Assembly (NCBI GenBank): GCA_039589275.1
Contig: JBDHHP010000010.1
Location: 15 to 64,014 of the forward strand
Length of the DNA stretch: 64,000 nt
Direction: 5' to 3'
From: Gemmatimonadota bacterium
Lineage (GTDB): Bacteria > Gemmatimonadota > Gemmatimonadetes > Gemmatimonadales > GWC2-71-9
Made by a program: the position numbers and the translations under genes. Shown here in pieces: positions 17,370-35,958 of the stretch (its first letter is position 1; each line of letters begins with the position of its first letter). The notes beneath the pieces are model-generated. The model saw only the letters and a program-made list of their open reading frames with translations. It did no database searches and was not told where the DNA came from.

Positions 17370-20087
17370 ATGAGCCAGAACCGATCGGCATACCGCCTCC
17401 TGCTGCTGCTCTACCCCGCCCGATTCAGACGGGAGTACGGCGGTGAGGCCCTACGACAACTGCATCACGATCTGCGCGAGGCAAGAAGCGCCGGCCCCAT
17501 ACGGTCCGTGTTGGAACGCGCGGCGTGCCTCGCTGACTTCTGTCTCGCCGGCTTGGCGGAACGACTCACCTCGATGTCGACTGGAGATCCGAACCGCAGT
17601 CGCAAGACGACAGGCCATTTCATGAGTACCGTGTTCCAGGACATCCGCTTCGCCCTGCGCGGCTTCATCAAGCGTCCGGGCTTCGCCCTGGTTGCGATCG
17701 TCTCCCTGGCGCTCGGCGTCGGGGCCAACACCGCCATCTTCAGCGTCGCCAACGGTGTCCTGTTCCGACCGCTGCCGTACGACGAGCCGGACCGGGTAGT
17801 GCAGATCCTGGGCACCCGCGACGCTCAGCTCACGGTCCGCAACGTGTGGCTCTCCTACCCCGAAATTGCAGATCTGCGAGCGACCAGTGAGGCGTTTGAG
17901 AACATCTCGGCGCGGCAGGGTTGGAGCCCCATCCTGTACGATGACGGCGTACCCACTCGGGTGTCCGGCATGGCCGTCTCCGATTGCTACTTCGACCTGT
18001 TCGGCCTGCCGCCGGCCCTGGGTCGTTTCTTCCTGCCGGAAGAGGGCGAGCTGGGTCACGAGCCGGTGGTCGTGTTGAGCTACGGATCCTGGCAACAGCG
18101 GTTTGCCGGAGACAGATCGGTGATCGGCCAAACGCTCGACCTCGACGGAACGCGTTACTCGATAGTGGGAGTAGCGCCGCAACAGTTCGTCGATCCGTTC
18201 GGCGGCAATCCACAGATGTGGCGCTCTCGTCCCCCCACGTGGGACGAGACACATCTCGCTCGCATAAATCACAGCTGGAGAGCGATCGGTAGGCTGGCGA
18301 GCGGAGCTACGCTCGGGCAGGCACAGGCCGACGTAGATCGCATCTGGTCCGGGTTCCAGATCCAGTATCCTGACAGCCACAACAACGAGGGAGTTCGCCT
18401 GCAGACCGCAAAGCAATGGATGACCGGCGGCGTGCAGACCGGGATCCTGGTGTTGCTCGGCGCGGTGGGACTGGTCCTGTTAATTGCATGCGCCAACGTT
18501 GCCAGCCTGTTTCTCACCCGCACCCTCGCGCGCAGCCGCGAGGTGGCCGTGCGCGCATCACTCGGCGCCGGCCGCGGCCGCATCGTGCGGCAGCTCGTGA
18601 CGGAAGTGTGCTTGCTGTTCTTGATCGGTGGCGCGGTCAGCCTCCCGGTCGCATGGCTGGGAACCGACTCGCTGCTGTCACTGGGAGGGACGAATCTGCC
18701 CAGGTTCGCGGAGATACGCGTGGACTGGGCGGTGATGGGGTTCGCGCTCGGGTTGTCACTCGTGACCGGTCTGATCTTCGGCCTCACCGCCGCGTACCCC
18801 GCCGTGCGTTCCGATCTAGCGCCTACGCTACAGGCGGCCGGGCGCAGCGCGTCGGGAGATACGAGTAGTCAGCGGCTGCGAGGTGCGCTGGTTGTAATGG
18901 AGTTGGCTCTCGCCATGGTGCTACTCACGGGATCGGGCCTGTTGCTGAGGAGCCTCTGGAGTCTGCAGCAGGTGGAGCCCGGGTTCCGCCCCGAGAACGT
19001 GCTGACACTGCGCACCTACCCGCGCGCGGGCCAGTACGGCGAGCCGGAAGAGATCACGAATCTGTACCAGGAAATGACTGCCCGCCTGGCAACCGTTCCC
19101 GGTGTAACCGCCGCAGGAGCGGTGAACTTCATACCTATGACCTCGGCCCAGAACTGCGAGTTCGTGTGGCGCGACGACCTGCCGGTACCTCCCCGGGAGA
19201 CATTGTCCGACTACGATTTCCCCCGCTGCCTCGAGGTGCGTGTGGTCACACCAGACTACTTCGATGCAATGGGTATCACCGTGTTGCGCGGTCGCGGGTT
19301 CACCGCAGCCGATGACGCCGCCGCACCGCCCGTCACCTTGATCAGTCAAGCGGCCGCCGAGTTGGGATTCCGCGGCGAGGACCCGCTCGGCAAGCGCGTG
19401 ACATTGTACGAGACCCGCGACTTCCTGCCCAACGTCTCGCGTGAGATCGTGGGCGTCGTGAGCAACGTGCGGAAAAGGAGCCTGGCCGCCGAAGCGGTCC
19501 CCGCCATCTACTTCGCGCACGCACAGGAACCCGATCCGTGGCGGCGGCGGGTCATGACGCTGGCCCTGAGAACCGCAGGCAACCCAACGGAGTTGGCGGA
19601 CCTGGCGCGCGCCACCGTGTGGCAGATCGACGATGAGACCCTGATCGACTTCGTACGCCCCATGACGACCCTCGTGAACCGCACTACCGCCCAACCGAGG
19701 TTCCGCACCACACTGGTATTGATATTCGGCGCAGTTGCGCTGCTGCTCTCCACGATCGGCGTGGCGGGAGTGGTGGGTTACGCCTTATCCCGCCGTATCC
19801 CGGAGATCGGTCTTCGCATCGCACTCGGCGCCGAGAGCAGAGACATCTACAGCACGGTCATGAGCCAGGGACTCAAGCTCACTGCCTGGGGACTGATACT
19901 CGGTGTGGGCGGCGCACTCGCCTCGACCAAGCTGTTGTCGGGAATCCTATTCGGCGTACCGCCGCACGATCCGGCGAGCTTCGTTGCCGCGTCACTGCTG
20001 ATGGCAGTGGTTGCGCTCGTGGCAATCTGGATTCCGGCCCGTAGGGCATTGCGGGTGGACCCGGTGAAAACGCTGAACGCGGAGTAG
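17370..20087 (+). CDS. ADOP-type duplicated MacB/FtsX-like permease (orphan; no ATPase gene adjacent)
   Basis: 905 aa. N-terminal cytoplasmic extension (YRLLLLLYPARFRREYG). Two MacB-like periplasmic domains, each followed by an FtsX-type 4-TM module (RPGFALVAIVSLALGVGANTAIFSV; IACANVASLFLTR; LRIALGAESRDIY). Ends PARRALRVDPVKTLNAE. Confidence 0.85.
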   Translation: MSQNRSAYRLLLLLYPARFRREYGGEALRQLHHDLREARSAGPIRSVLERAACLADFCLAGLAERLTSMSTGDPNRSRKTTGHFMSTVFQDIRFALRGFIKRPGFALVAIVSLALGVGANTAIFSVANGVLFRPLPYDEPDRVVQILGTRDAQLTVRNVWLSYPEIADLRATSEAFENISARQGWSPILYDDGVPTRVSGMAVSDCYFDLFGLPPALGRFFLPEEGELGHEPVVVLSYGSWQQRFAGDRSVIGQTLDLDGTRYSIVGVAPQQFVDPFGGNPQMWRSRPPTWDETHLARINHSWRAIGRLASGATLGQAQADVDRIWSGFQIQYPDSHNNEGVRLQTAKQWMTGGVQTGILVLLGAVGLVLLIACANVASLFLTRTLARSREVAVRASLGAGRGRIVRQLVTEVCLLFLIGGAVSLPVAWLGTDSLLSLGGTNLPRFAEIRVDWAVMGFALGLSLVTGLIFGLTAAYPAVRSDLAPTLQAAGRSASGDTSSQRLRGALVVMELALAMVLLTGSGLLLRSLWSLQQVEPGFRPENVLTLRTYPRAGQYGEPEEITNLYQEMTARLATVPGVTAAGAVNFIPMTSAQNCEFVWRDDLPVPPRETLSDYDFPRCLEVRVVTPDYFDAMGITVLRGRGFTAADDAAAPPVTLISQAAAELGFRGEDPLGKRVTLYETRDFLPNVSREIVGVVSNVRKRSLAAEAVPAIYFAHAQEPDPWRRRVMTLALRTAGNPTELADLARATVWQIDDETLIDFVRPMTTLVNRTTAQPRFRTTLVLIFGAVALLLSTIGVAGVVGYALSRRIPEIGLRIALGAESRDIYSTVMSQGLKLTAWGLILGVGGALASTKLLSGILFGVPPHDPASFVAASLLMAVVALVAIWIPARRALRVDPVKTLNAE

Positions 20088-20193: not shown

Positions 20194-20529
20194 ATGACGA
20201 ACTCCTTCATCGGCGAATTTGAACAAATGGTGTTGCTGTCCATCCTGCAGCAAGGGGATCAGGCCTACGCCATCGATGTACGCAGGGAACTGGAGCGCTC
20301 GGCAGGGCGGTCGGTTTCCCGCGGCGCGCTATACCGCACCTTCGATCGGCTAGAGGCCAAGGGATTCCTCGAGTGGGAACTCGAGGGTGGAAACCCGTCG
20401 CCCGATCGCGGCGGACATCCAATGCGTCACTTCCGCGTAACCAAGACCGGCATCGAAGCGCTGCAGGCTTCGCGCACCGCTCTCATCAAGCTGTGGTCCG
20501 GACTCGAGACGGTGCTGGACAAACCGTGA
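20194..20529 (+). CDS. PadR family transcriptional regulator
   Basis: Start at ATG 20194: MTNSFIGEFEQMVLLSILQQGDQAYAIDVRRELERSAGRSVSRGALYRTFDRLEAKGFLE. Confidence 0.85.
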   Translation: MTNSFIGEFEQMVLLSILQQGDQAYAIDVRRELERSAGRSVSRGALYRTFDRLEAKGFLEWELEGGNPSPDRGGHPMRHFRVTKTGIEALQASRTALIKLWSGLETVLDKP

Positions 20530-23225
20530 CAGCCCCGGCTCGAACCGCACACGAACCACCGGCGCTCGCCGAGTCGCTGCTGACGCGCTGCCTACCATCG
20601 GATGAGCGCGCCGCGTGCATTCTCGGCGACCTGCGCCAGGAGTTCGCCGACTTGTGTCGCCTGGGACTCGAGAGGCCGGCACGCGGATGGTACCGCAAAC
20701 AGGCTCTCGCCATCGGCTGGCGCTACCTGCTCGCACGCCATCGCCCCGCCACCATGCTCGGCTCGAACCAGCCGGTCGGACCAAACAAACGAGGCAATAC
20801 CGTGGAATCGCTGCTCCAGGATACGCGTTACGCCGTACGGTCGTTTGCCAGACGACCGGGGTTCTCGCTCACTGTGATCGCAATAGTCGGACTCGGCATC
20901 GGTGCCGCTACCTCGATCTTCAGTGTGGTGGACGGTGTGTTGCTCAAGCGACTGCCCTACCCCGACCCGCACGAGCTGGTGTTCTTCGGCAACCCGGCCC
21001 ACCCGATTCCGCTAATGCTCGACTGGCGCGATCGCACTAACTCGTTCGCGTCGATGGCTGGCGTGTGGGACCGCGAGGTCGACTTGACGGGTGACGGAGA
21101 ACCGCAAACTATCCGTATCGGTCTGGTGACACGTGACTTCTTTTCTCTACTAGGCGCACGGGCCGGACGGGGTCGCCTGTTCGCGTCGGACGAATTCGAG
21201 TCACCATCCAGAGTGGCGGTAGTGAGCTACCTGATGTGGCAGTCCCGCTGGGGCGGGGATCGTGATCTCATCGGGAAGACCGTCACGCTGGGCGGTGAGC
21301 CCGCCACCGTGGTGGGCGTACTCGACTCTGAGTTCCAAGATCCGGACGCGATGGTGGGGTCCGGGATCGACGTGTGGCTGCCGCTCGACCTGCGCGACCC
21401 CGAGGTCGCCAACCGAAACATGTACATCCTCGCGGTGGGCGCCCGGCTCAAAACCGGAGTGACGCGCGAAGCGGCTCAAGCCGACGTGAACGCGCTCACG
21501 GCCATCCTCGCCGAAGAACATCCCGACCACGCGCTGCGGCGCGACGGAACACCGCGCCGCTACACCGTGCTTTCGTTGCAAGAGGCAATCGTGGGAGATG
21601 CGGCGACCGTGCTCTACATGCTGCTCGGCGCCGTCGCGCTGCTGCTGGTAATCGCCTGCGCCAACGTGGCCAACTTGTTCCTCGCACGCGGCACGGAGCG
21701 CCAGCGTGAGATGGCGTTGAGAGGCGCACTCGGAGCCGGTCGCACGCGCGTCCTGGGCCAGCTTCTCACCGAGAGCGTGATGATCTCGCTAGCCGGCGGT
21801 TTGCTCGGACTAGCAATCGCTTACGGTGGCGTGCGGTTATTCGAGTTGTACAATCCCGGCGGCATACCGCGCGCGGAGAGCATTGCGGTCGACCTGCGAG
21901 TGCTTGGTTTTGCACTCGGCGTGTCGGCGCTCACCGGCATACTCTTTGGGCTCGCACCAGCACTACAGGCAATGGGAGTCGACGTCACCGACTCGTTGAA
22001 GGACGCATCCGGCACGCTCACAGCGAGCCGTGCGCGTCGCAAATTGCGCAACACACTGGTGGTCGCGGAGATAGCTGTCGCGCTGGTGCTGCTGATTGGA
22101 GCGGGATTGCTGTTCAACAGCTTCATTCGCTTGAAGAGCATTGATCCCGGTTTCCAGACTGACGACGTCGTTTCGGTATCACTCCGCTTCCGCCCTGCCC
22201 CGCTCGATCAACCGCCCGAGGCAGAGCGCATTAGGATGACTCAAGATCTGTTGCAGCGATTAGCTGCGATTCCTGGAGTGGAACGAGTTGCCGCCGGTGT
22301 CACGATTCCGTTCGGTACCGGCGGCCGTGGCACCATGTGTTGCTGGCTGAGCAACGTACGAGCGACGCCGGAAGAGATCGAGGACGCACCCGACCCGATC
22401 ATCCACCCAGTTACACCCGGGTACTTCGCTACGATCGGTACCCGAGTCATTCGCGGCAGGGAGTTCACCGCGTCGGACCTCGATTCGGCCAGCGTGCCGC
22501 TGATCATCAACACTCGCCTGGCAAACCGGCTGTTCGAGGCGGAAGACCCGATCGGCCGCACCATCTGGTTCCGTGAATACCGCGGCAACGTCATAGGCGT
22601 GGTGGACAACATCCTGCACTGGGGGCTACACCGCACCGCCGACTACGAGATGTACGTCCCATACAACGTCATGGGCGGGTTCTTCGGGCGGATCCAGTTT
22701 GCGGTCAAGTCCGGACTCGATCCGTCAGTGATCGCGGGCGACATCCGTGAAGCCGTCTGGGCTGTGAACCCAGATCAGCCGATTCGTGAGATCGCCCCGG
22801 TGAATCAGCTAGTCGGCGGGTCGATTGCGGAGCCGCGCTTTGTGTCGGCACTGCTGATCGCGTTCTCTGCCATGGCCATCCTATTGGCGGCCGGCGGCAT
22901 CTACGGTTCGATCCTCTACTCTGTGCAGCAGAGACAACGCGAATTGGGTATTCGTATGGCACTGGGGGCCGGTCGAGTGAGTGTGGTCGGCCTGATTCTG
23001 AAACAGGGAATGTTGCTCACCGCGATCGGTGTCACGCTTGGTGTCGGCGGAGCGCTGGCGCTGACACGCACCATGGAGAGCCTGTTGTTCGGCATCACGC
23101 CGAGCGATGCGACGACGTACGTCGTGGTGTGCGCGCTACTCGCCGCGGTCGCCCTGACCGCAAGCTACCTGCCGGCGCGCAGGGCGTCTGAGACCGACCC
23201 AATGGAGACGTTGCGGGTGGAGTGA
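20526..23225 (+). CDS. ADOP-type duplicated MacB/FtsX-like permease (second copy)
   Basis: GTG 20526 overlaps the padR stop (GTGA). Same architecture as 17370-20087 (RPGFSLTVIAIVGLGIGAATSIFSV; IACANVANLFLAR; IRMALGAGRVSVV; PARRASETDPMETLRVE). Confidence 0.85.
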   Translation: MTAPARTAHEPPALAESLLTRCLPSDERAACILGDLRQEFADLCRLGLERPARGWYRKQALAIGWRYLLARHRPATMLGSNQPVGPNKRGNTVESLLQDTRYAVRSFARRPGFSLTVIAIVGLGIGAATSIFSVVDGVLLKRLPYPDPHELVFFGNPAHPIPLMLDWRDRTNSFASMAGVWDREVDLTGDGEPQTIRIGLVTRDFFSLLGARAGRGRLFASDEFESPSRVAVVSYLMWQSRWGGDRDLIGKTVTLGGEPATVVGVLDSEFQDPDAMVGSGIDVWLPLDLRDPEVANRNMYILAVGARLKTGVTREAAQADVNALTAILAEEHPDHALRRDGTPRRYTVLSLQEAIVGDAATVLYMLLGAVALLLVIACANVANLFLARGTERQREMALRGALGAGRTRVLGQLLTESVMISLAGGLLGLAIAYGGVRLFELYNPGGIPRAESIAVDLRVLGFALGVSALTGILFGLAPALQAMGVDVTDSLKDASGTLTASRARRKLRNTLVVAEIAVALVLLIGAGLLFNSFIRLKSIDPGFQTDDVVSVSLRFRPAPLDQPPEAERIRMTQDLLQRLAAIPGVERVAAGVTIPFGTGGRGTMCCWLSNVRATPEEIEDAPDPIIHPVTPGYFATIGTRVIRGREFTASDLDSASVPLIINTRLANRLFEAEDPIGRTIWFREYRGNVIGVVDNILHWGLHRTADYEMYVPYNVMGGFFGRIQFAVKSGLDPSVIAGDIREAVWAVNPDQPIREIAPVNQLVGGSIAEPRFVSALLIAFSAMAILLAAGGIYGSILYSVQQRQRELGIRMALGAGRVSVVGLILKQGMLLTAIGVTLGVGGALALTRTMESLLFGITPSDATTYVVVCALLAAVALTASYLPARRASETDPMETLRVE

Positions 23226-24438: not shown

Positions 24439-25041
24439 ATGACCTCGACCGTTCTCCCAGACCTGTTCTCCTCCAGGGACGCGTCTCACCGCGCTCAGGT
24501 CCGAGAATCGCTGAACGCCGAACCGGACACACTGCTCCAGACACTAGTCGCGCACCACTCGGAGCTGGTGTTGGCCTACATTCGCAAGTTCGTGCCTGAC
24601 CCAGAAGATGCATGCGACTTGTTGCAGGACGTCTGGCTTCAGATCCTGCGCAAGAATCACACGTACGCCGGTGCCGGCTCGTTCCTGGGTTGGGCTCTCA
24701 CCATCGCCCGAAACACCTGCCTCTCCGCGTTGCGCAGCCCTGACCGGCGCTACACGCTGCAGCCTGCCGCCGACCCAGGCGACGGATCTTGGCGACAGCA
24801 CGGGTTCGAGACCCGCACTCCGGATGTCGTAGCGGATCAGCGAGCACTGCGACGCGACCTGTTCCGTGCCATTGACAACCTTGCTCCAGGGCAGCGGGCT
24901 GTCGTGATGTTGCGCTTGGTGGAAGGCAGAAGTACCCGGGAGGCAGCTACTCTTTTGGGCTGCAGTACTGGGACTGTCAAGGGATCCCTGTTTCGCGCCA
25001 AACGACAACTGCGCACCGAGTTGGCTCACTGGCGTTCTTGA
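24439..25041 (+). CDS. ECF-type RNA polymerase sigma-70 family factor
   Basis: Region 2: LVLAYIRKFVPDPEDACDLLQDVWLQILRK. Region 4: QRAVVMLRLVEGRSTREAATLLGCSTGTVKGSLFRAKRQLR. Confidence 0.85.
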   Translation: MTSTVLPDLFSSRDASHRAQVRESLNAEPDTLLQTLVAHHSELVLAYIRKFVPDPEDACDLLQDVWLQILRKNHTYAGAGSFLGWALTIARNTCLSALRSPDRRYTLQPAADPGDGSWRQHGFETRTPDVVADQRALRRDLFRAIDNLAPGQRAVVMLRLVEGRSTREAATLLGCSTGTVKGSLFRAKRQLRTELAHWRS

Positions 25042-25165
25042 ATCGGACGCACCTCTAGCAGTAGCCGAGAACACCTCTCACAGCTACTTTTTCTGACCGG
25101 CCGGGAGCGGAGCGGAGGTTCCACCCCCCCCAGTATCGGAGTTCTCACTGACAACAGCACGAGCC

Positions 25166-25753
25166 ATGACAAGAGCAAATAGCCCACGGAAGAAGGCCAG
25201 CACCGCGCGGGCAAGCGCCGCGCAAACTGGCGAGGCACCCGAAAACCTGGACAAGGTCAGAGACATCCTGTTCGGCGGCCAGATGCGCGTGGTCGACAAG
25301 CGACTTGCTGCCCTCGAGGAACGGTTCAAACGCGAAGTTGCCGGGCTCCGCAAGGAGCATGAAAAGCGATTGTCCGGCATCGAGGGCTACATGAAGAAGG
25401 AGCTCGAGTCGTTGACCGAGAAGCTGAAGGTGGAGCGATCCAAGCGCGTAGACGATCTGAAGGCTCTCTCCTCCGAACTGAAAGACGGATCAAAGGACCT
25501 CGAGAACCGCTTAGCGAAGCTGGGTGACACCACAAGCAAGGCGGACGCCGACGTGCGGTCGGCCATACTCGAGCAGGCGAAGTCGGTAACCGAACAGCTG
25601 ACACACGCCTCAGATGCTCTCTCGGACGAGTTGCAGCGTGCCGTGAACGAACTCCGCGCAGACAAGCTCGATACCGCAACCGTCATACAGTTGTTTTCCG
25701 ACATGGCGCTCCATCTAACCGAAGACCTGCAGGCTGGACCGGAGCAAGACTGA
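25166..25753 (+). CDS. Cytoplasmic coiled-coil protein (hypothetical)
   Basis: 195 aa, no TM segment, long heptad-like stretches. The N-terminal motif LDKVRDILFGGQMRVVDKRLAALEERF recurs in the next ORF (FSDLRELLLGQEKERLAELERRL). Confidence 0.6.
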   Translation: MTRANSPRKKASTARASAAQTGEAPENLDKVRDILFGGQMRVVDKRLAALEERFKREVAGLRKEHEKRLSGIEGYMKKELESLTEKLKVERSKRVDDLKALSSELKDGSKDLENRLAKLGDTTSKADADVRSAILEQAKSVTEQLTHASDALSDELQRAVNELRADKLDTATVIQLFSDMALHLTEDLQAGPEQD

Positions 25754-25755
25754 CG

Positions 25756-27495
25756 GTGCCGGAGGAAGGGCAATCGCAGGAGTTCTCCGATCTACGAGAG
25801 CTGCTGCTCGGACAGGAGAAAGAACGCCTCGCGGAACTGGAACGCCGTCTCGACGAGTTAGAACTATCGCCCGAAGAACTGGCGGACTACCTGCCGGAAG
25901 CCGTTGCCCTGCGAGCCGCCCGTGATAAGCAGCTTGCGCGGTCTCTAGCACCTACCCTCGAGGACGCCTTCAGCGAATCGGTCGAACGCAACCCACGACT
26001 GATTGCCCACACGATCTTCCCCATCATAGGCCCTGCAATACGCAAGTCCATAGCAGAGACTATGGCCGGACTGGTGGAAACACTGAACCACGCCATCGAG
26101 AGCAGCCTGTCGTGGCAAGGCTTGAAATGGCGGGTCGAGGCTCTGCGCACCGGTGTCCCCTACGCCCAAGTCGTGATCAAGCATGCGCTTGTGTATCGCG
26201 TCGAACAGGTGTTCCTCATCCACCGTGAGACGGGTCTACTGTTAGCCAACGCCGCAGCAGCAGATCTCGACACACAAGACGCTGATCTCATTTCCGGGAT
26301 GATGACCGCCATACGCGACTTCGTGCAGGATTCATTCGGCTCGGCAGCAGACGGTGACGGCGGCCTACGCACGTTCAGCGTGGGAGAGCGCACCGTGTTG
26401 GTCGAACAGGGGCCCAGAGCACTACTTGCCGTGGTCGTGAGTGGCCAGCACCCTCCGTCCCTAGTCGAACGCATACAGGCGACCTTAGAAACGATACATC
26501 TGCGTTTCAGCTCGGCCTTGACTGAGTTCGAAGGCGACGCTGCTCCATTCGAGCCGTCGCAGCCGCTGCTCGAGGAACTGCTCGAGACCGTGCTTGCTAC
26601 CGATCGACCTGGCACTCGCAGTGCCGCACCTCGCGTTGCCTGGGTCGTGATCTTGGCGCTCGTAGTACTGGTAGCCGCTCTATGGATCAGGTCGGCGCTG
26701 CGTTGGAACCGCGCCATCACCGCGCTGGAGAACGAACCGGGAGTAGTGTTGGTCGAGACGGAGCGTGGGTTGATGCGCAGTCATCTGGAAGGCTTGGTGG
26801 ATCCGCTCGCTACCGATCCGGGGTTGTTGCTGGATAGCATGAACGTCGACACGTCCCGCGTGGAAGTCCGCTGGCAGTCGTACTTGTCGTTAGACCCCGA
26901 GATGGTCGCGGCGCGAGCCCGTCAGGTATGGGACGCGCCCACGAGCGTCAACTTCCGGTTGGTCCATGATACGTTGATCGCCTCGGGAACTGCCACCTTC
27001 GATTGGATGCACGGGCTGACGTCGAGCGCAGCATTGCCCGGGGTTTCCCATATCGACATCTCGGGCGTTGCTCCCACGTTGCCACCCGAGCTGGCGACGC
27101 ACAAGCAGCGCATCGAGGACCAGAAGGTCCTCTTCGAGATCGGCTCCGCAGCACTACCGCCGGCAGCGCTGGACCTGATCTCAGATATCGCAGGTTCCTT
27201 TGGTGAGATGTTGGACATTGGCCGTGTGAGAGGTTACGACATGTCGCTCGAGGTGATCGGCCGCTCTGACACAACGGGAACCAGCGAGGTAAACCAGCTC
27301 CTGAGCCTGCAACGCGCCAACGTGGTGCGCGGATCGCTGGCAGCACGCGGCATACCCAGCGAGATGATTGCGACCGTGGGGATAGGCACGTCCGACCCAA
27401 TCCGCTCGGCTGATCCTGACAACCGGTCCGCGTTGAATCGCAGCGTGTCGTTCAGCGTTAGCGTTACATACCCGGGCGGTGGAGGAAATCAATAG
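25756..27495 (+). CDS. Membrane protein: coiled coil + Roadblock/LC7-like domain + TM + BON-like domain + OmpA-like peptidoglycan-binding domain
   Basis: GTG start 2 nt after the upstream stop. The Roadblock-like pattern VEQVFLIHRETGLLLANA...ADLISGMMTAIRDFVQDSF...LRTFSVGERTVLVEQGPRALLAVVVSG is an inference. TM segment VAWVVILALVVLVAALWI. ALENEPGVVLVETERGLMRSHLEGLV is BON-like. OmpA_C-like tail: GRSDTTGTSEVNQLLSLQRANVVRGSLAARGI...NRSALNRSVSF. Confidence 0.7.
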   Translation: MPEEGQSQEFSDLRELLLGQEKERLAELERRLDELELSPEELADYLPEAVALRAARDKQLARSLAPTLEDAFSESVERNPRLIAHTIFPIIGPAIRKSIAETMAGLVETLNHAIESSLSWQGLKWRVEALRTGVPYAQVVIKHALVYRVEQVFLIHRETGLLLANAAAADLDTQDADLISGMMTAIRDFVQDSFGSAADGDGGLRTFSVGERTVLVEQGPRALLAVVVSGQHPPSLVERIQATLETIHLRFSSALTEFEGDAAPFEPSQPLLEELLETVLATDRPGTRSAAPRVAWVVILALVVLVAALWIRSALRWNRAITALENEPGVVLVETERGLMRSHLEGLVDPLATDPGLLLDSMNVDTSRVEVRWQSYLSLDPEMVAARARQVWDAPTSVNFRLVHDTLIASGTATFDWMHGLTSSAALPGVSHIDISGVAPTLPPELATHKQRIEDQKVLFEIGSAALPPAALDLISDIAGSFGEMLDIGRVRGYDMSLEVIGRSDTTGTSEVNQLLSLQRANVVRGSLAARGIPSEMIATVGIGTSDPIRSADPDNRSALNRSVSFSVSVTYPGGGGNQ

Positions 27496-27995
27496 TGATT
27501 CAGAAGAAGATCTGCATGGTGGGCGTGTTTGGCACCGGTAAGACTAGTCTGGTGCAACAGTTCGTGCACTCCATGTTCTCCGAGAAGTACCACTCCACCG
27601 TCGGAGTCAAGATCGATCGCAAGGAAGTCGATCTCTCGGGCACGAAGGTGAACCTGTTGCTGTGGGACCTTGCGGGACGCGACGAGTTCGAGGACATCCC
27701 CACCAGCTATCTGCGCGGATCCGCCGGCATCTTCTACGTGGTCGATGGAACGCGACGGGAGACATTTGACCAGATAGCCGACCTAAGGGACCTGGTGAAC
27801 GGCGCCATAGGAGACGTGCCATCGTTGGTAGCGCTCAACAAGAAAGACCTCACCGACCAGTGGAGGCTGGGAAAGGGCGACCACAATACGCTAGTCGAAG
27901 CAGGGCTTCACACGATCGGCACCAGCGCGAAGACAGGCGAAGGCGTGGAAGAGGCATTCATTTGGCTGGCCAACGCAACGGTCAAGAGCGAGTAG
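27495..27995 (+). CDS. Ras-like small GTPase
   Basis: G1 GVFGTGKTS, switch-I T in HSTVGV, G3 WDLAGRD, G4 NKKD, G5 TSAK. The GTG start overlaps the upstream stop (TAGTG), with GGAGG 8 nt upstream. Confidence 0.8.
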   Translation: MIQKKICMVGVFGTGKTSLVQQFVHSMFSEKYHSTVGVKIDRKEVDLSGTKVNLLLWDLAGRDEFEDIPTSYLRGSAGIFYVVDGTRRETFDQIADLRDLVNGAIGDVPSLVALNKKDLTDQWRLGKGDHNTLVEAGLHTIGTSAKTGEGVEEAFIWLANATVKSE

Positions 27996-28007
27996 ACAGG
28001 CAAAGAC

Positions 28008-28850
28008 ATGATGACACAAAACAGCGGCGTTGGCGGAACGGTGGACAGCTTCGGACTCACCCACCGTGGCAAGGTGCGTGAGGTGAACGAAGATCATTTC
28101 TTCGTAGCGGCGTTGCACAAGACCTTGGACTTGCGGCACACCAGTATCGAGGAACTAGACGCCTTCGAGCACCTCAGGCGATCTGAGGATCATCTCTTCG
28201 TAGTGGCCGACGGGGTAGGGACGATCGGCGGGGGTCGCATCGCGAGTGGCACAGCGGTGCGCACACTGGTGACCTACATCGGCCGCACGATGGGCTGTTA
28301 TTACAGTTACGATGTCGAATCCGAGAACGAGTTCATCGAGCAGCTCGAGAATGCGGTAAAGCACGCACACGAGACGTTGCTCGAGGAGTTCTCGTCGAAA
28401 GGCACGGGACCGGCGACGACGTTGACCATGGCCACGTTGATGTGGCCACGAGCCTACCTGATCCACGTGGGTGACAGCCGCGCCTATCATCTGCGGCGGG
28501 GACGCATCCGCCAGATCACGCAAGATCAGACGATGGGCGAGCTCATGATCGACCAGGGGATCATGACCGAGGAACAGGTCAAGCGGTCTAGTCTCTCCAA
28601 CACCCTCTCTAGCGCAGTCGGCGCAGAAATGAAGCCAAGTGTTGGGCTGATCGACCTCAATTGGGGCGATACGCTGTTGCTTTGCAGCGATGGTCTAACC
28701 AGGCACGTACCCGACGATGCGATCGCCGAGATCCTCGCCCAAGCCGACACCGCCCAGGTGGCCTGCGAGCGCCTAGTCGACGCGGCGTTGGAAGACGGCG
28801 GCCGGGACAATATCACGGTTGTGGTCGGGAGGATGGTGGAGAACAGCTGA
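28008..28850 (+). CDS. PP2C-family Ser/Thr protein phosphatase
   Basis: GLTHRGKVREVNEDHFFV, FVVADGVGT, HVGDSRAY, LLLCSDGLT, GGRDNITVVV. Confidence 0.85.
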   Translation: MMTQNSGVGGTVDSFGLTHRGKVREVNEDHFFVAALHKTLDLRHTSIEELDAFEHLRRSEDHLFVVADGVGTIGGGRIASGTAVRTLVTYIGRTMGCYYSYDVESENEFIEQLENAVKHAHETLLEEFSSKGTGPATTLTMATLMWPRAYLIHVGDSRAYHLRRGRIRQITQDQTMGELMIDQGIMTEEQVKRSSLSNTLSSAVGAEMKPSVGLIDLNWGDTLLLCSDGLTRHVPDDAIAEILAQADTAQVACERLVDAALEDGGRDNITVVVGRMVENS

Positions 28851-28872
28851 CGGCTGACAGCTGTCAGCCGTC
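28849..28872. terminator. Perfect 24-bp palindrome between convergent genes (probable bidirectional terminator)
   Basis: GACGGCTGACAG|CTGTCAGCCGTC. Both convergent stop codons (28848-28850 and 28871-28873) lie in its arms. Confidence 0.5.
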
Positions 28873-34062: not shown

Positions 34063-35958
34063 TCAACCGCTGTCAACCGGATTCAGGACCTTGTCAGCCG
34101 CCGGTCCCAGCCCCCTCGTGTCACCATCTCGCCGGGTGAGAGACATCCCATCCATCCATTCCAACACTGGTATCAGATGCTTTCGTGTCAGGCCGGTTTC
34201 CTCCCTCAATTGGGCCGGCGAGGCCCTACCTGCCTGGTCGACCACACGCAGAATCTGCAGCAAGAGTCGATCCAGTGCTCCTCGGTTGTAGTACCGCTCC
34301 TTGGCCACCCTCACAACCTCACCGCTTCGCACGTAGAACTCCACCAAATCGCGCGAAACCGTCCCACCGATCCCTGCCTCCAACTCACTGAGCGACCGAC
34401 CCTTGGGTCCGGCGCCGTCCAGTTGCGCCAGGATCTTGCTGCCGAGGCCAGCCTGTTCGTACGAGGGTCGAGGAACGTGCTCGACCAGCCTGGCTGTCTT
34501 GCCCTCGATAGCGATTTGGCCGCAATCGCTCAATGCCTGCAGTACATGGTCGGCAATACCCTCGTCTCGCAGCGCCTGCCTTATCAGCCCCCGCGGCATC
34601 CCCGGATCGAGTGGCCTCTTTATGTGATACTCTGTCAACAGCCGCAATGTTGCAGCTTCAGAATCCGTCAGCACAGCACGAGACACCAAACGGCCCGCGG
34701 CCCTGACGGCCTCCCTTGCCGATTCCACCACCGCGCCCGCCTCACCCGGTGTCAGACCTACTCGGACGGACAGCTCACTGACATCCAGTCCCCGCAACCC
34801 TGCACCCAACACGAACGCTTCCAGCCGCTTCGTCGCCTCGGCGGCCGCCTTAGCCGGAAGATCCACTGGGCGTCTCGGCCGGGAAGGTGGCCAAGGGTCG
34901 ACAACTACACAGCCACCTATCGTCGTCATTGGCGAATAGGACCGAATTACGGCTCTATCGCCCCAGCGACATACCAGCGGCACCTCGAGCCGCAGTCGAG
35001 CTCCGGCCGGCACGCCCGGCACTATCTCCCCGGTCGCCGGCGTGACACGTGCCATCACCTCAGCCGTACCGAGGTGAAGCCGAACGCGTGACCGTTGGGT
35101 CAGCGGTTTGGCGCCGGGCAACAGTGTCACCACCGCATCAACTGCGGTGCTCTCGCGCCAGGACGAATCAGATACTACCACATGTCCTCGGGCCAGCTCT
35201 CCGCGACCCAGGCCTACGAGAGCCAAAGCGGTGCGGCGTCCAGGAAGCGCAGCCTCATGCGACACACCGTGTACTTCCACTGCGCGGACCCTGGCTTTCT
35301 GTTTGCCAGGCAACACCCGAACATCTTCGCCAACTGTTACGGAGCCGCTCCAAGTGGTGCCGGTGATCACCGTTCCCGCTCCCGACACACTGAAAACGCG
35401 ATCCACCGGCATACGGAACAGGTCCTGCTGCGACCGGACCGCTGACTCAGTCGCCGCTGAAGCCAGAGCCGCTCGCAATTCGTCGCCGCCCAGATCCGTG
35501 ACGGCGGAGGTCCGCACAGTCGCCTTCCATTGGACGGATGATGCCTCTAGCCGCTCAGCGATGTCGGCCTCGACCAGCTCCAGCCATTCATCTTCGACCA
35601 GGTCACACTTGGTGATCGCGGCCACGCCCGCTCGCACGCCAAGCAGCTCCAGGATCGCGAGATGTTCGTTCGTCTGGGGCATCATTCCCTCGTCGGCGGC
35701 CACAACCAGTAGCGCAACATCGATCCCGGTCGCCCCGGCCACCATGTTGCGCACGAAATCCTCGTGACCCGGCACGTCGACGATACTAGCAGTGAGATCG
35801 GACGCGAGTGGCAGCACCGCAAACCCAAGATCGATCGTTATCCCACGACGCTTCTCTTCCTCCCAGCGATCGGTATCGGTTCCGGTGAGCGACTTCACCA
35901 GGGCCGTCTTGCCATGATCGATATGTCCGGCCGTGCCGATTACTACATGTCGTTCCAA
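34063..35958 (-). CDS. selB: Selenocysteine-specific translation elongation factor
   Basis: [56 protein letters not shown] long C-terminal winged-helix extension is typical of SelB. Confidence 0.9.

Follow-up and report, generated by a model that had tools for sequence, protein, structure and literature searches.

A probable Group 1 Rup GTPase cassette with a PP2C phosphatase as its fourth gene in a Gemmatimonadota bacterium

Background

What does a small Ras-like GTPase do in a bacterial operon that also encodes a membrane protein with a peptidoglycan-binding domain and a Ser/Thr phosphatase, and does the sigma factor gene in front of them belong to the same system? The question is raised by positions 24439-28850 of a 64,000-nucleotide (nt) stretch of the Gemmatimonadota contig JBDHHP010000010.1 (assembly GCA_039589275.1), which is called the window below and in which all positions are counted. 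Five plus-strand open reading frames (ORFs) lie here, and all their coordinates were confirmed against the ORF list of the window: a sigma factor gene of the extracytoplasmic function (ECF) type, followed by the genes of a coiled-coil protein, a 579-residue membrane protein, a GTPase and a PP2C phosphatase (Table 1). The three junctions between the last four genes were read from the sequence, and the tight coupling claimed for them in the first-pass annotation, made from the sequence alone, is real: TGA-cg-GTG between the coiled-coil and membrane-protein genes (2-nt gap), TAGTG between the membrane-protein and GTPase genes (1-nt overlap), and a 12-nt gap between the GTPase and PP2C genes.

Our answer, to which we give a probability of roughly 60%, is that these four genes are the Gemmatimonadota version of the Group 1 Rup cassette, with a PP2C output and with a Roadblock/longin-type domain of the membrane protein as the platform for the Rup GTPase. 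The Group 1 Rup neighbourhood was defined computationally by Wuichet and Sogaard-Andersen in 2014 (Genome Biol Evol 7:57; PMC4316618). According to that paper, the GTPase is encoded with a cytoplasmic coiled-coil protein and with an adjacent protein whose conserved N-terminal domain (of "unknown function") is followed by an inner-membrane helix and, at the C-terminus, by an OmpA domain; the fourth gene encodes a GGDEF/EAL or histidine kinase output with an invariant Gln in its N-terminal region, and the G3 motif of the GTPase is without the catalytic Gln. The paper also proposes an analogy with the conservon and reports no experimentally characterised member (PMC4316618). The first-pass annotation had known of no characterised system with this composition, but the composition had been published, in computational work that does not recognise the Roadblock fold. 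What is new here is the PP2C-output variant of a computationally known cassette, together with a Roadblock/longin assignment at the level of predicted fold. A search limited to open-access literature found no experimental work on Rup, and no Roadblock assignment, later than the 2014 paper; on Rup systems and on Roadblock-OmpA fusions it yielded nothing of relevance except that paper and the work on the conservon and MglA.

A three-gene core conserved across phyla

One genome per GTDB species was scanned, which gave more than 510 loci with relatives of the membrane protein, and the best 80 were taken for neighbourhood analysis. These 80 loci belong to Gemmatimonadota, Acidobacteriota (Pyrinomonadaceae, Blastocatellia, Vicinamibacterales and Thermoanaerobaculia), Nostocales cyanobacteria, Desulfobacterota, Armatimonadota and others. 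By tblastn, the order coiled-coil gene, membrane-protein gene, GTPase gene is found in about 70 of them, from at least five phyla, and it holds in nearly every locus with enough flanking sequence; the ORFs recovered were 74 for the coiled-coil protein, 76 for the membrane protein and 73 for the GTPase. The coiled-coil gene lies directly upstream of the membrane-protein gene in 74 loci, and the architecture of the membrane protein is kept at full length in the best 80. Because the order recurs in so many loci and phyla, the adjacency of the core genes is not due to chance, and the three genes are an ancient unit whose order has been maintained in different phyla. Conservation of the neighbourhood, which had been suggested as a check, is therefore observed for the coiled-coil, OmpA-protein and GTPase genes, with the PP2C gene as a conserved fourth member within the lineage.

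The family is large: the N-terminal 300 residues of the membrane protein alone retrieve 4752 representatives of clusters made at 50% identity, of which 1648 have E<=1e-30. In the 2014 paper, Nostocales are named for Group 1, and Gemmatimonadota and Acidobacteria are not among the taxa listed for Rup (PMC4316618). The Nostocales members with this neighbourhood are direct orthologs of the window genes, and their GTPases are 51-57% identical to the window GTPase.

Architecture of the membrane protein

A full-length AlphaFold2 model of the 579-residue protein was built on 53 homologs (mean predicted local distance difference test score, pLDDT, 77.6). In this model, N-terminal helices of low confidence are followed by an alpha/beta domain, one transmembrane helix, a periplasmic alpha/beta region and an OmpA-like domain. 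A Foldseek search with it returned matches to the OmpA domain only and none to the cytoplasmic domain, so a separate model of residues 118-280 was needed (pLDDT 82.9; predicted template modelling score, pTM, 0.72). All of the best 50 PDB matches of this second model belong to the Roadblock/longin superfamily, with E-values of 3e-4 to 1.3e-3 and a target-normalised TM-score of up to 0.72. They include LAMTOR2/3, MP1-p14, MglB (3t1r, 3t12, 6izw, 1j3w) and the C-terminal domains of RagA/C, and further Ego3, dynein LC7, the longins of Sec22b, VAMP7 and Ykt6, AP sigma subunits and Mon1-Ccz1. The modelled elements (helices 136-144, 176-194 and 234-250; strands 145-156, 162-167, 205-209, 212-218 and 222-230) form a predicted five-stranded beta-beta-alpha-beta-beta-beta sheet flanked by helices, as the superfamily requires, and helix alpha-2 (SGMLTAIQDFVxDSF) is near-invariant. 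The structural check named in the first-pass annotation for the segment at about residues 130-250 thus returned a predicted Roadblock/longin fold, and the Roadblock/LC7 module claimed there is supported at the level of fold only.

The periplasmic half begins with an alpha/beta region (residues 330-455 in the model). A cross-phylum profile of this linker alone finds OsmY as its best PDB match, with both BON repeats (E=0.005), and phmmer aligns residues 400-570 with the BON and OmpA protein Rv0899. The Pfam BON family (PF04972) has no match in the window protein, and 2 of 49 homologs match it at about 0.05. Three paralogues of more than 900 residues (P0193, P0196 and P0214) carry several BON repeats between the transmembrane helix and the OmpA domain, scoring 35.8-38.9 bits against the Pfam cut-off of 27 bits, in P0196 at a comparable position; because of these insertions, the length of the periplasmic spacer is seen to vary within the membrane-protein family. 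The BON-like domain suggested earlier is supported by these matches and by the topology of the model, with the reservation that the window protein itself has no Pfam BON match.

The OmpA-type peptidoglycan-binding domain of the first-pass annotation is confirmed at both levels. Pfam OmpA (PF00691) matches residues 460-562 at 2.3e-11 (44.4 bits against a cut-off of 27.2), and Foldseek matches at 1e-8 to 1e-6 are Pal, OprF, YfiB and the C domain of Rv0899. Both D505 and R520 are found in all of 53 close homologs, and R520 is kept without exception in 49 diverse ones as well. The two residues are 15 positions apart, which we take to be the spacing of the Asp/Arg pair that binds diaminopimelic acid in OmpA-like domains. 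On the models, the 579-residue protein would therefore combine in one chain a Roadblock/longin-type fold, a transmembrane helix and a periplasmic part that is BON-like and ends in a peptidoglycan anchor of the OmpA type.

The N-terminal motif that the first-pass annotation had seen in both the coiled-coil and the membrane protein is kept in both families across phyla (vRDILFGxQ and LRxLLLGxE), and the profile-profile comparison by hhalign gives P=9e-4 for it, compared with 0.06 and 0.49 for control segments. The strongest conservation in the membrane-protein family is found in residues 43-118 (25882-26109), with LPEA..., PT... and AIFPVxGPAIRKAI and with invariant P66, P89 and G92-R96. This helical region is modelled at pLDDT below 52 and may be a partner-binding or an in-plane membrane segment.

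The GTPase and the coiled-coil protein

All GTPase motifs are present in the 166-residue protein: G1 GVFGTGKT, T35, DLAG, NKKD and TSAK. In Ras numbering it has Phe at the position of Gly12 and Arg at that of Gln61, G3 being DLAGR. Among 74 sequences (the window GTPase and 73 orthologs), the residue at the position of Gln61 is most often Glu (40 sequences), then Arg (15), Ala (6), Lys (5) or Thr (4), and it is Gln in none; Phe12 is found in 62 of the 74. The closest PDB relatives are Rab8 and Rab10. The earlier description as a Ras-like GTPase with full G1-G5 motifs is correct as to family and motifs; what has to be given up is a canonical Ras switch, as the catalytic Gln is lacking throughout. 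The 195-residue protein has only weak helical matches of the apolipoprotein/phasin type, and therefore fits a coiled coil.

The fourth gene as an exchangeable output slot

The claim of a PP2C phosphatase holds: in addition to the domain matches (Table 1), the sequence contains the catalytic motifs REVNEDHF, VADGVG, SDGL and GGRDNIT, so that the enzyme is catalytically intact, and it is closest to Stp1/IreP. Only about 17 residues precede the catalytic domain. The position after the GTPase gene is filled differently between lineages. In Acidobacteriota, cyanobacteria, Desulfobacterota and Armatimonadota a histidine kinase, a hybrid kinase or an HD-GYP protein usually follows; in Nostocales there is first a 133-residue ORF without Pfam family and then a kinase; in loci of the Gemmatimonadota type and those labelled Thermoanaerobaculia, a PP2C with 45-70% identity to that of the window is found. 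The fourth gene is thus an exchangeable output slot, occupied by a histidine kinase or HD-GYP protein elsewhere and by PP2C here.

A PP2C gene is part of the cassette in 21 related loci (18 from genomes, 3 from metagenomic contigs). In most of them it comes directly after the GTPase gene, from which, according to the gene calls of the source assemblies, it is separated by a few bases or which it overlaps by a few. PP2C-type cassettes also occur in two Thermoanaerobaculia-labelled assemblies of Acidobacteriota, L008 (OZ245024.1, Candidatus Multivoradales) and L030, one of which is a complete chromosome, so the PP2C variant either is not confined to Gemmatimonadota or was transferred.

The outputs other than PP2C carry two recurrent N-terminal modules of about 130 residues and no Pfam family, type A (SpAyLLV..dG.L..WGGkL..YG...FLeGlLPLd...iQQ) and type B (FLEnFL.dAe.fW...QkaRe), each of which ends in a conserved Gln-containing motif. 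They were seen at L037:8212-8613, L048:8221-8634 and L077:8187-8588 and at the output N-termini of L024, L040, L058 and L066; the separate 133-residue ORF of Nostocales is a type A module. A hidden Markov model search of the six-frame translation of the window found no match to either type. A likeness between type A and PP2C near LFVVADGVG..GGG was discarded as spurious, with fewer than 10 bits per segment and a non-colinear arrangement.

An upstream element of the cassette

The alignment of the upstream regions of relatives revealed a conserved element in front of the coiled-coil gene, with the consensus TAGCCG-N16-CTAC(C/T)TT, which is partly an inverted repeat (TAGCC...GGCTA). It is common to L083, where the sigma gene is present, and to L081, L082 and L046, where it is absent, and the TAGCCG-N16-CTACTTT pattern is unique in the 64-kb window. 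Its conservation with or without the sigma gene, and its single occurrence in the window, suggest that the cassette has its own control region. The element could be a promoter or an operator, and its -7-like TAnnTTT recalls promoters of the Bacteroidota type. At E<=1 Rfam has no match in the leader or the operon, this element included, and a generic scan for sigma-70 promoters and terminators gave results no better than shuffled sequences.

Table 1. Features of the locus, with positions in the window (aa, amino acids)
Feature	Position	Strand	Basis
ECF-type sigma-70 factor, 200 aa	24439-25041	+	Sigma70_r2 and r4_2 (Pfam); neighbour, outside the conserved cassette
Conserved upstream element TAGCCG-N16-CTACTTT	25062-25090	+	alignment of relatives' upstream regions
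Cytoplasmic coiled-coil protein, 195 aa	25166-25753	+	weak apolipoprotein/phasin-type helical matches; N-terminal motif vRDILFGxQ
Bitopic inner-membrane protein, 579 aa	25756-27495	+	AlphaFold2 model, Pfam OmpA, family conservation
N-terminal motif LRELLLGQE...RLAELERRL, aa 12-33	25789-25854	+	common to the coiled-coil protein
Predicted Roadblock/longin-fold domain, aa 136-256	26161-26523	+	predicted topology H-EE-H-EEE-H; Foldseek matches
Single transmembrane helix, aa 291-326 (hydrophobic core about 294-311)	26626-26733	+	long helix, pLDDT 80-93; hydrophobic run VAWVVILALVVLVAALWI
Periplasmic linker: small beta-beta-alpha-beta unit, then BON-like alpha-beta-beta-alpha-beta unit (aa 381-441)	26737-27120	+	AlphaFold2 secondary structure, linker profile
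OmpA-like peptidoglycan-binding domain, aa 457-571	27124-27468	+	Pfam OmpA and Foldseek
Rup-type (Rab/Ras-like) small GTPase, 166 aa	27495-27995	+	Pfam Ras 2.8e-30; G1-G5
PP2C (Stp1-like) Ser/Thr phosphatase, 280 aa	28008-28850	+	PP2C_2 2.9e-12; NCBIfam Stp1 176 bits
Perfect 20-nt palindrome CGGCTGACAGCTGTCAGCCG	28851-28870	.	read from sequence

Relation to known systems

The window cassette shares three of the four neighbourhood features of Group 1 Rup, and also the G3 motif without Gln; it is a variant in its fourth gene, a PP2C without the Gln module in place of the GGDEF/EAL or histidine kinase output with that module (PMC4316618). The domain called "unknown" there is assigned here, from the models, a predicted Roadblock/longin fold, and the linker is BON-like.

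Roadblock/longin domains serve as platforms of small GTPases in MglB, Ragulator and the conservon protein CvnB (PMC4316618, PMC12236503). In MglA/MglB of Myxococcus xanthus and Thermus thermophilus, a small Ras-superfamily GTPase is likewise encoded beside a Roadblock-fold protein. However, MglB is a soluble, stand-alone Robl_LC7 protein, whereas the fold is here embedded in a 579-residue membrane protein with no Robl_LC7 sequence match, and the window GTPase is Rab/Ras-like rather than MglA-like, is without the catalytic Gln and has the neighbourhood of Rup Group 1, not of any MglA group. The conservon CvnA-D (mfp operon in Mycobacterium) follows the same logic, with genes for a membrane sensor, for a Roadblock and an accessory protein and for a small GTPase in one operon. 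It has the histidine-kinase-like CvnA and the DUF742 protein CvnC, while the cassette proteins match neither HATPase_c nor DUF742 in Pfam; its sensor and Roadblock protein are separate, whereas here they appear fused, the periplasmic part is a peptidoglycan anchor, and the GTPase is Rup, not MglA group 2. Ragulator/LAMTOR with the Rag GTPases, and the longin exchange factors, are likewise membrane-anchored Roadblock/longin platforms for small GTPases. Among the 50 structural matches, the best are LAMTOR2/3, MP1-p14, the Rag C-terminal domains, Mon1-Ccz1 and Sec22b, but the likeness is at the level of fold (9-20% identity), and the membrane, the partners and the output differ.

For the periplasmic half, Rv0899/ArfA has the same order of BON and then OmpA-like domain and aligns by sequence, and OsmY/DolP are BON envelope proteins, the profile match being to the OsmY repeats. 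Unlike the cassette, these proteins have neither a cytoplasmic signalling domain nor a linked GTPase. Two regulatory modules can be compared with the genes at either end of the locus. PP2C partner switching of the RsbU/SpoIIE type involves STAS and anti-sigma kinase genes, which were not found here: the operon has no STAS anti-anti-sigma or anti-sigma kinase gene, the neighbours scanned are housekeeping and transport genes, and among them no partner Ser/Thr kinase, STAS or FHA gene was found. An ECF sigma/anti-sigma envelope-stress module has a co-transcribed anti-sigma gene and a conserved linkage of the sigma gene to the sensing genes, and neither was found for this locus.

Alternative explanations

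The proposal of a Group 1 Rup cassette with a Roadblock platform and a PP2C output has several points against it. Its Roadblock assignment comes from predicted structure with modest Foldseek E-values (about 3e-4). Neither the window protein nor any of 48 diverse homologs matches Pfam Robl_LC7 (PF03259) at E<=1, and a cross-phylum profile of the domain alone has no match among all PDB sequences; since these sequence methods detect nothing, the assignment is made at the level of fold only. The best-conserved cytoplasmic segment, residues 43-118, is not part of the domain and has a model of low confidence, and the decisive interface may therefore lie elsewhere. The PP2C is without an N-terminal output module and, judged from its sequence, has no recognisable module for binding the GTPase, so its coupling to the GTPase may differ or be nil; no kinase or substrate is evident near it among the neighbours scanned.

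Which genes belong to the system can be asked at both ends. The first-pass annotation listed the ECF sigma factor as a component and possibly an output, and a five-gene trans-envelope switch in which PP2C and the GTPase replace an anti-sigma factor would explain why the sigma gene is co-oriented, 124 nt upstream of the coiled-coil gene, and why no anti-sigma gene is adjacent to it, a point on which that annotation was right (on inspection of the ORFs, none fits between or beside the genes). An orthologous sigma factor with 62% identity is moreover encoded at the same place in two relatives, the P0002 contig and L083, and only there. By tblastn, however, none of the 80 genome loci has a sigma homolog within 6 kb, not even those whose membrane protein is 63% identical to that of the window, and the gene is not adjacent in two of four close metagenomic relatives (L081 and L082). 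L083 also shares with the window the MacB-type permease (the second of a tandem pair) and the DsbA neighbours. Because these flanking genes are syntenic as well, the adjacency is explained by shared ancestry, as local synteny inherited in a sub-clade. The promoter-like element stands between the sigma gene and the cassette, and it is found also where there is no sigma gene. Region 2.2 of the sigma factor has the usual acidic motif, EDACDLLQD, and so nothing points to phospho-regulation. The sigma gene is a separate, lineage-specific neighbour; its membership in the cassette was rejected on neighbourhood grounds, in spite of its retention in the syntenic sub-clade, and we regard the five-gene switch as improbable. 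Still less likely is the idea that at the other end PP2C is a passenger without relation to the cassette. The enzyme is similar to generic Stp1-type phosphatases and has neither of the modules that mark outputs elsewhere, but its gene is kept in the 21 related loci, remains adjacent even where the identity of the membrane protein has fallen to 45%, and stays with the cassette even when relocated, as in L015, where PP2C lies upstream and a kinase downstream.

The other two alternatives accept the cassette and concern what it does. It could be a structural or positional module rather than a sensor, a peptidoglycan-anchored landmark like MotB or Pal under GTPase control, as in polarity by MglA and FlhF. 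The anchors MotB, PomB and TssL, which likewise have a cytoplasmic N-terminus, one transmembrane helix, a periplasmic linker and an OmpA domain, appear among the OmpA-domain matches, scaffolds typically have a long coiled-coil protein as partner, and the characterised bacterial Ras-like GTPases MglA and SofG control polarity (PMC4316618). Against this, the fourth gene encodes a signalling enzyme (histidine kinase, HD-GYP protein or PP2C) in most lineages examined, and the loci inspected have no linked genes for motors, pili or secretion; we find this reading doubtful. About as doubtful is the view that the Roadblock-like domain is a small alpha/beta dimerisation or ligand-sensing domain, the GTPase being regulated by the helical residues 43-118, the coiled-coil protein or the output protein. 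It accords with the peak of conservation in residues 43-118 rather than in the domain, with the lack of sequence-level kinship to MglB or Robl_LC7, and with the Gln-containing N-terminal modules of the outputs in other phyla, which recall the in-trans glutamine idea of Wuichet and Sogaard-Andersen (PMC4316618). However, the characterised Roadblock/longin domains among the best 50 Foldseek matches all belong functionally to GTPase or coat complexes, the domain has a near-invariant helix of its own, alpha-2, and the window lineage has no Gln-bearing module and so needs some other regulator. We retain the Group 1 Rup cassette with a Roadblock platform as the preferred reading.

Proposed mechanism

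By analogy with the pairs MglB and MglA, CvnB and CvnD, and Ragulator and the Rags, the membrane-tethered Roadblock/longin domain would probably be dimeric and serve as a docking or regulatory platform for Rup, that is, as GTPase-activating protein (GAP), guanine nucleotide exchange factor (GEF) or scaffold; a GAP or GEF activity is suggested by likeness of fold. The coiled-coil protein might co-assemble or compete through the shared N-terminal motif. The BON/OmpA part would link the protein with peptidoglycan, perhaps also with outer-membrane lipid, sense the state of the envelope and relay it through the single transmembrane helix to the platform, and the nucleotide state of Rup would control PP2C and hence the Ser/Thr dephosphorylation of putative substrates. 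The complete chain, a trans-envelope switch from the state of peptidoglycan or outer membrane through the transmembrane helix to a Roadblock dimer acting as GAP or GEF, a Rab-like GTPase without Gln and PP2C, is offered tentatively, and we would rather bet against all of its steps being right.

Neighbouring genes

Downstream, the palindrome CGGCTGACAGCTGTCAGCCG exactly occupies the interval between the stop of the PP2C gene and that of a convergent DsbA-like gene, whose ORF on the minus strand ends at 28871. It probably marks the end of the operon, as a bidirectional terminator without a T-tract. Upstream of the cassette lie two tandem, duplicated MacB_PCD/FtsX permeases of more than 900 residues each (17370-20087 and 20373-23225); in L083 a PadR regulator gene precedes the MacB-type permease. 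A gene for the selenocysteine-specific elongation factor SelB at 34063-35958 on the minus strand makes it probable that the organism produces selenoproteins. A search of the whole window for tRNA genes gave none.

Significance

Group 1 Rup cassettes are widespread, with thousands of 50%-identity clusters for the N-terminal domain family, which are spread over many phyla and include those of the genetically tractable Nostoc. A Roadblock/longin fold for the "unknown" cytoplasmic domain would give the cassette a concrete, testable mechanism, and it would extend the ancient partnership of Roadblock domains and GTPases to a protein anchored to the cell wall. The PP2C variant points to a modular output slot, in which a Ras-like switch would be linked to Ser/Thr phospho-signalling and not to two-component or cyclic di-GMP signalling. 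If the trans-envelope switch is true, it would be a bacterial counterpart of the Ragulator-Rag logic, by which the status of the cell wall would be passed on to Ser/Thr phospho-signalling.

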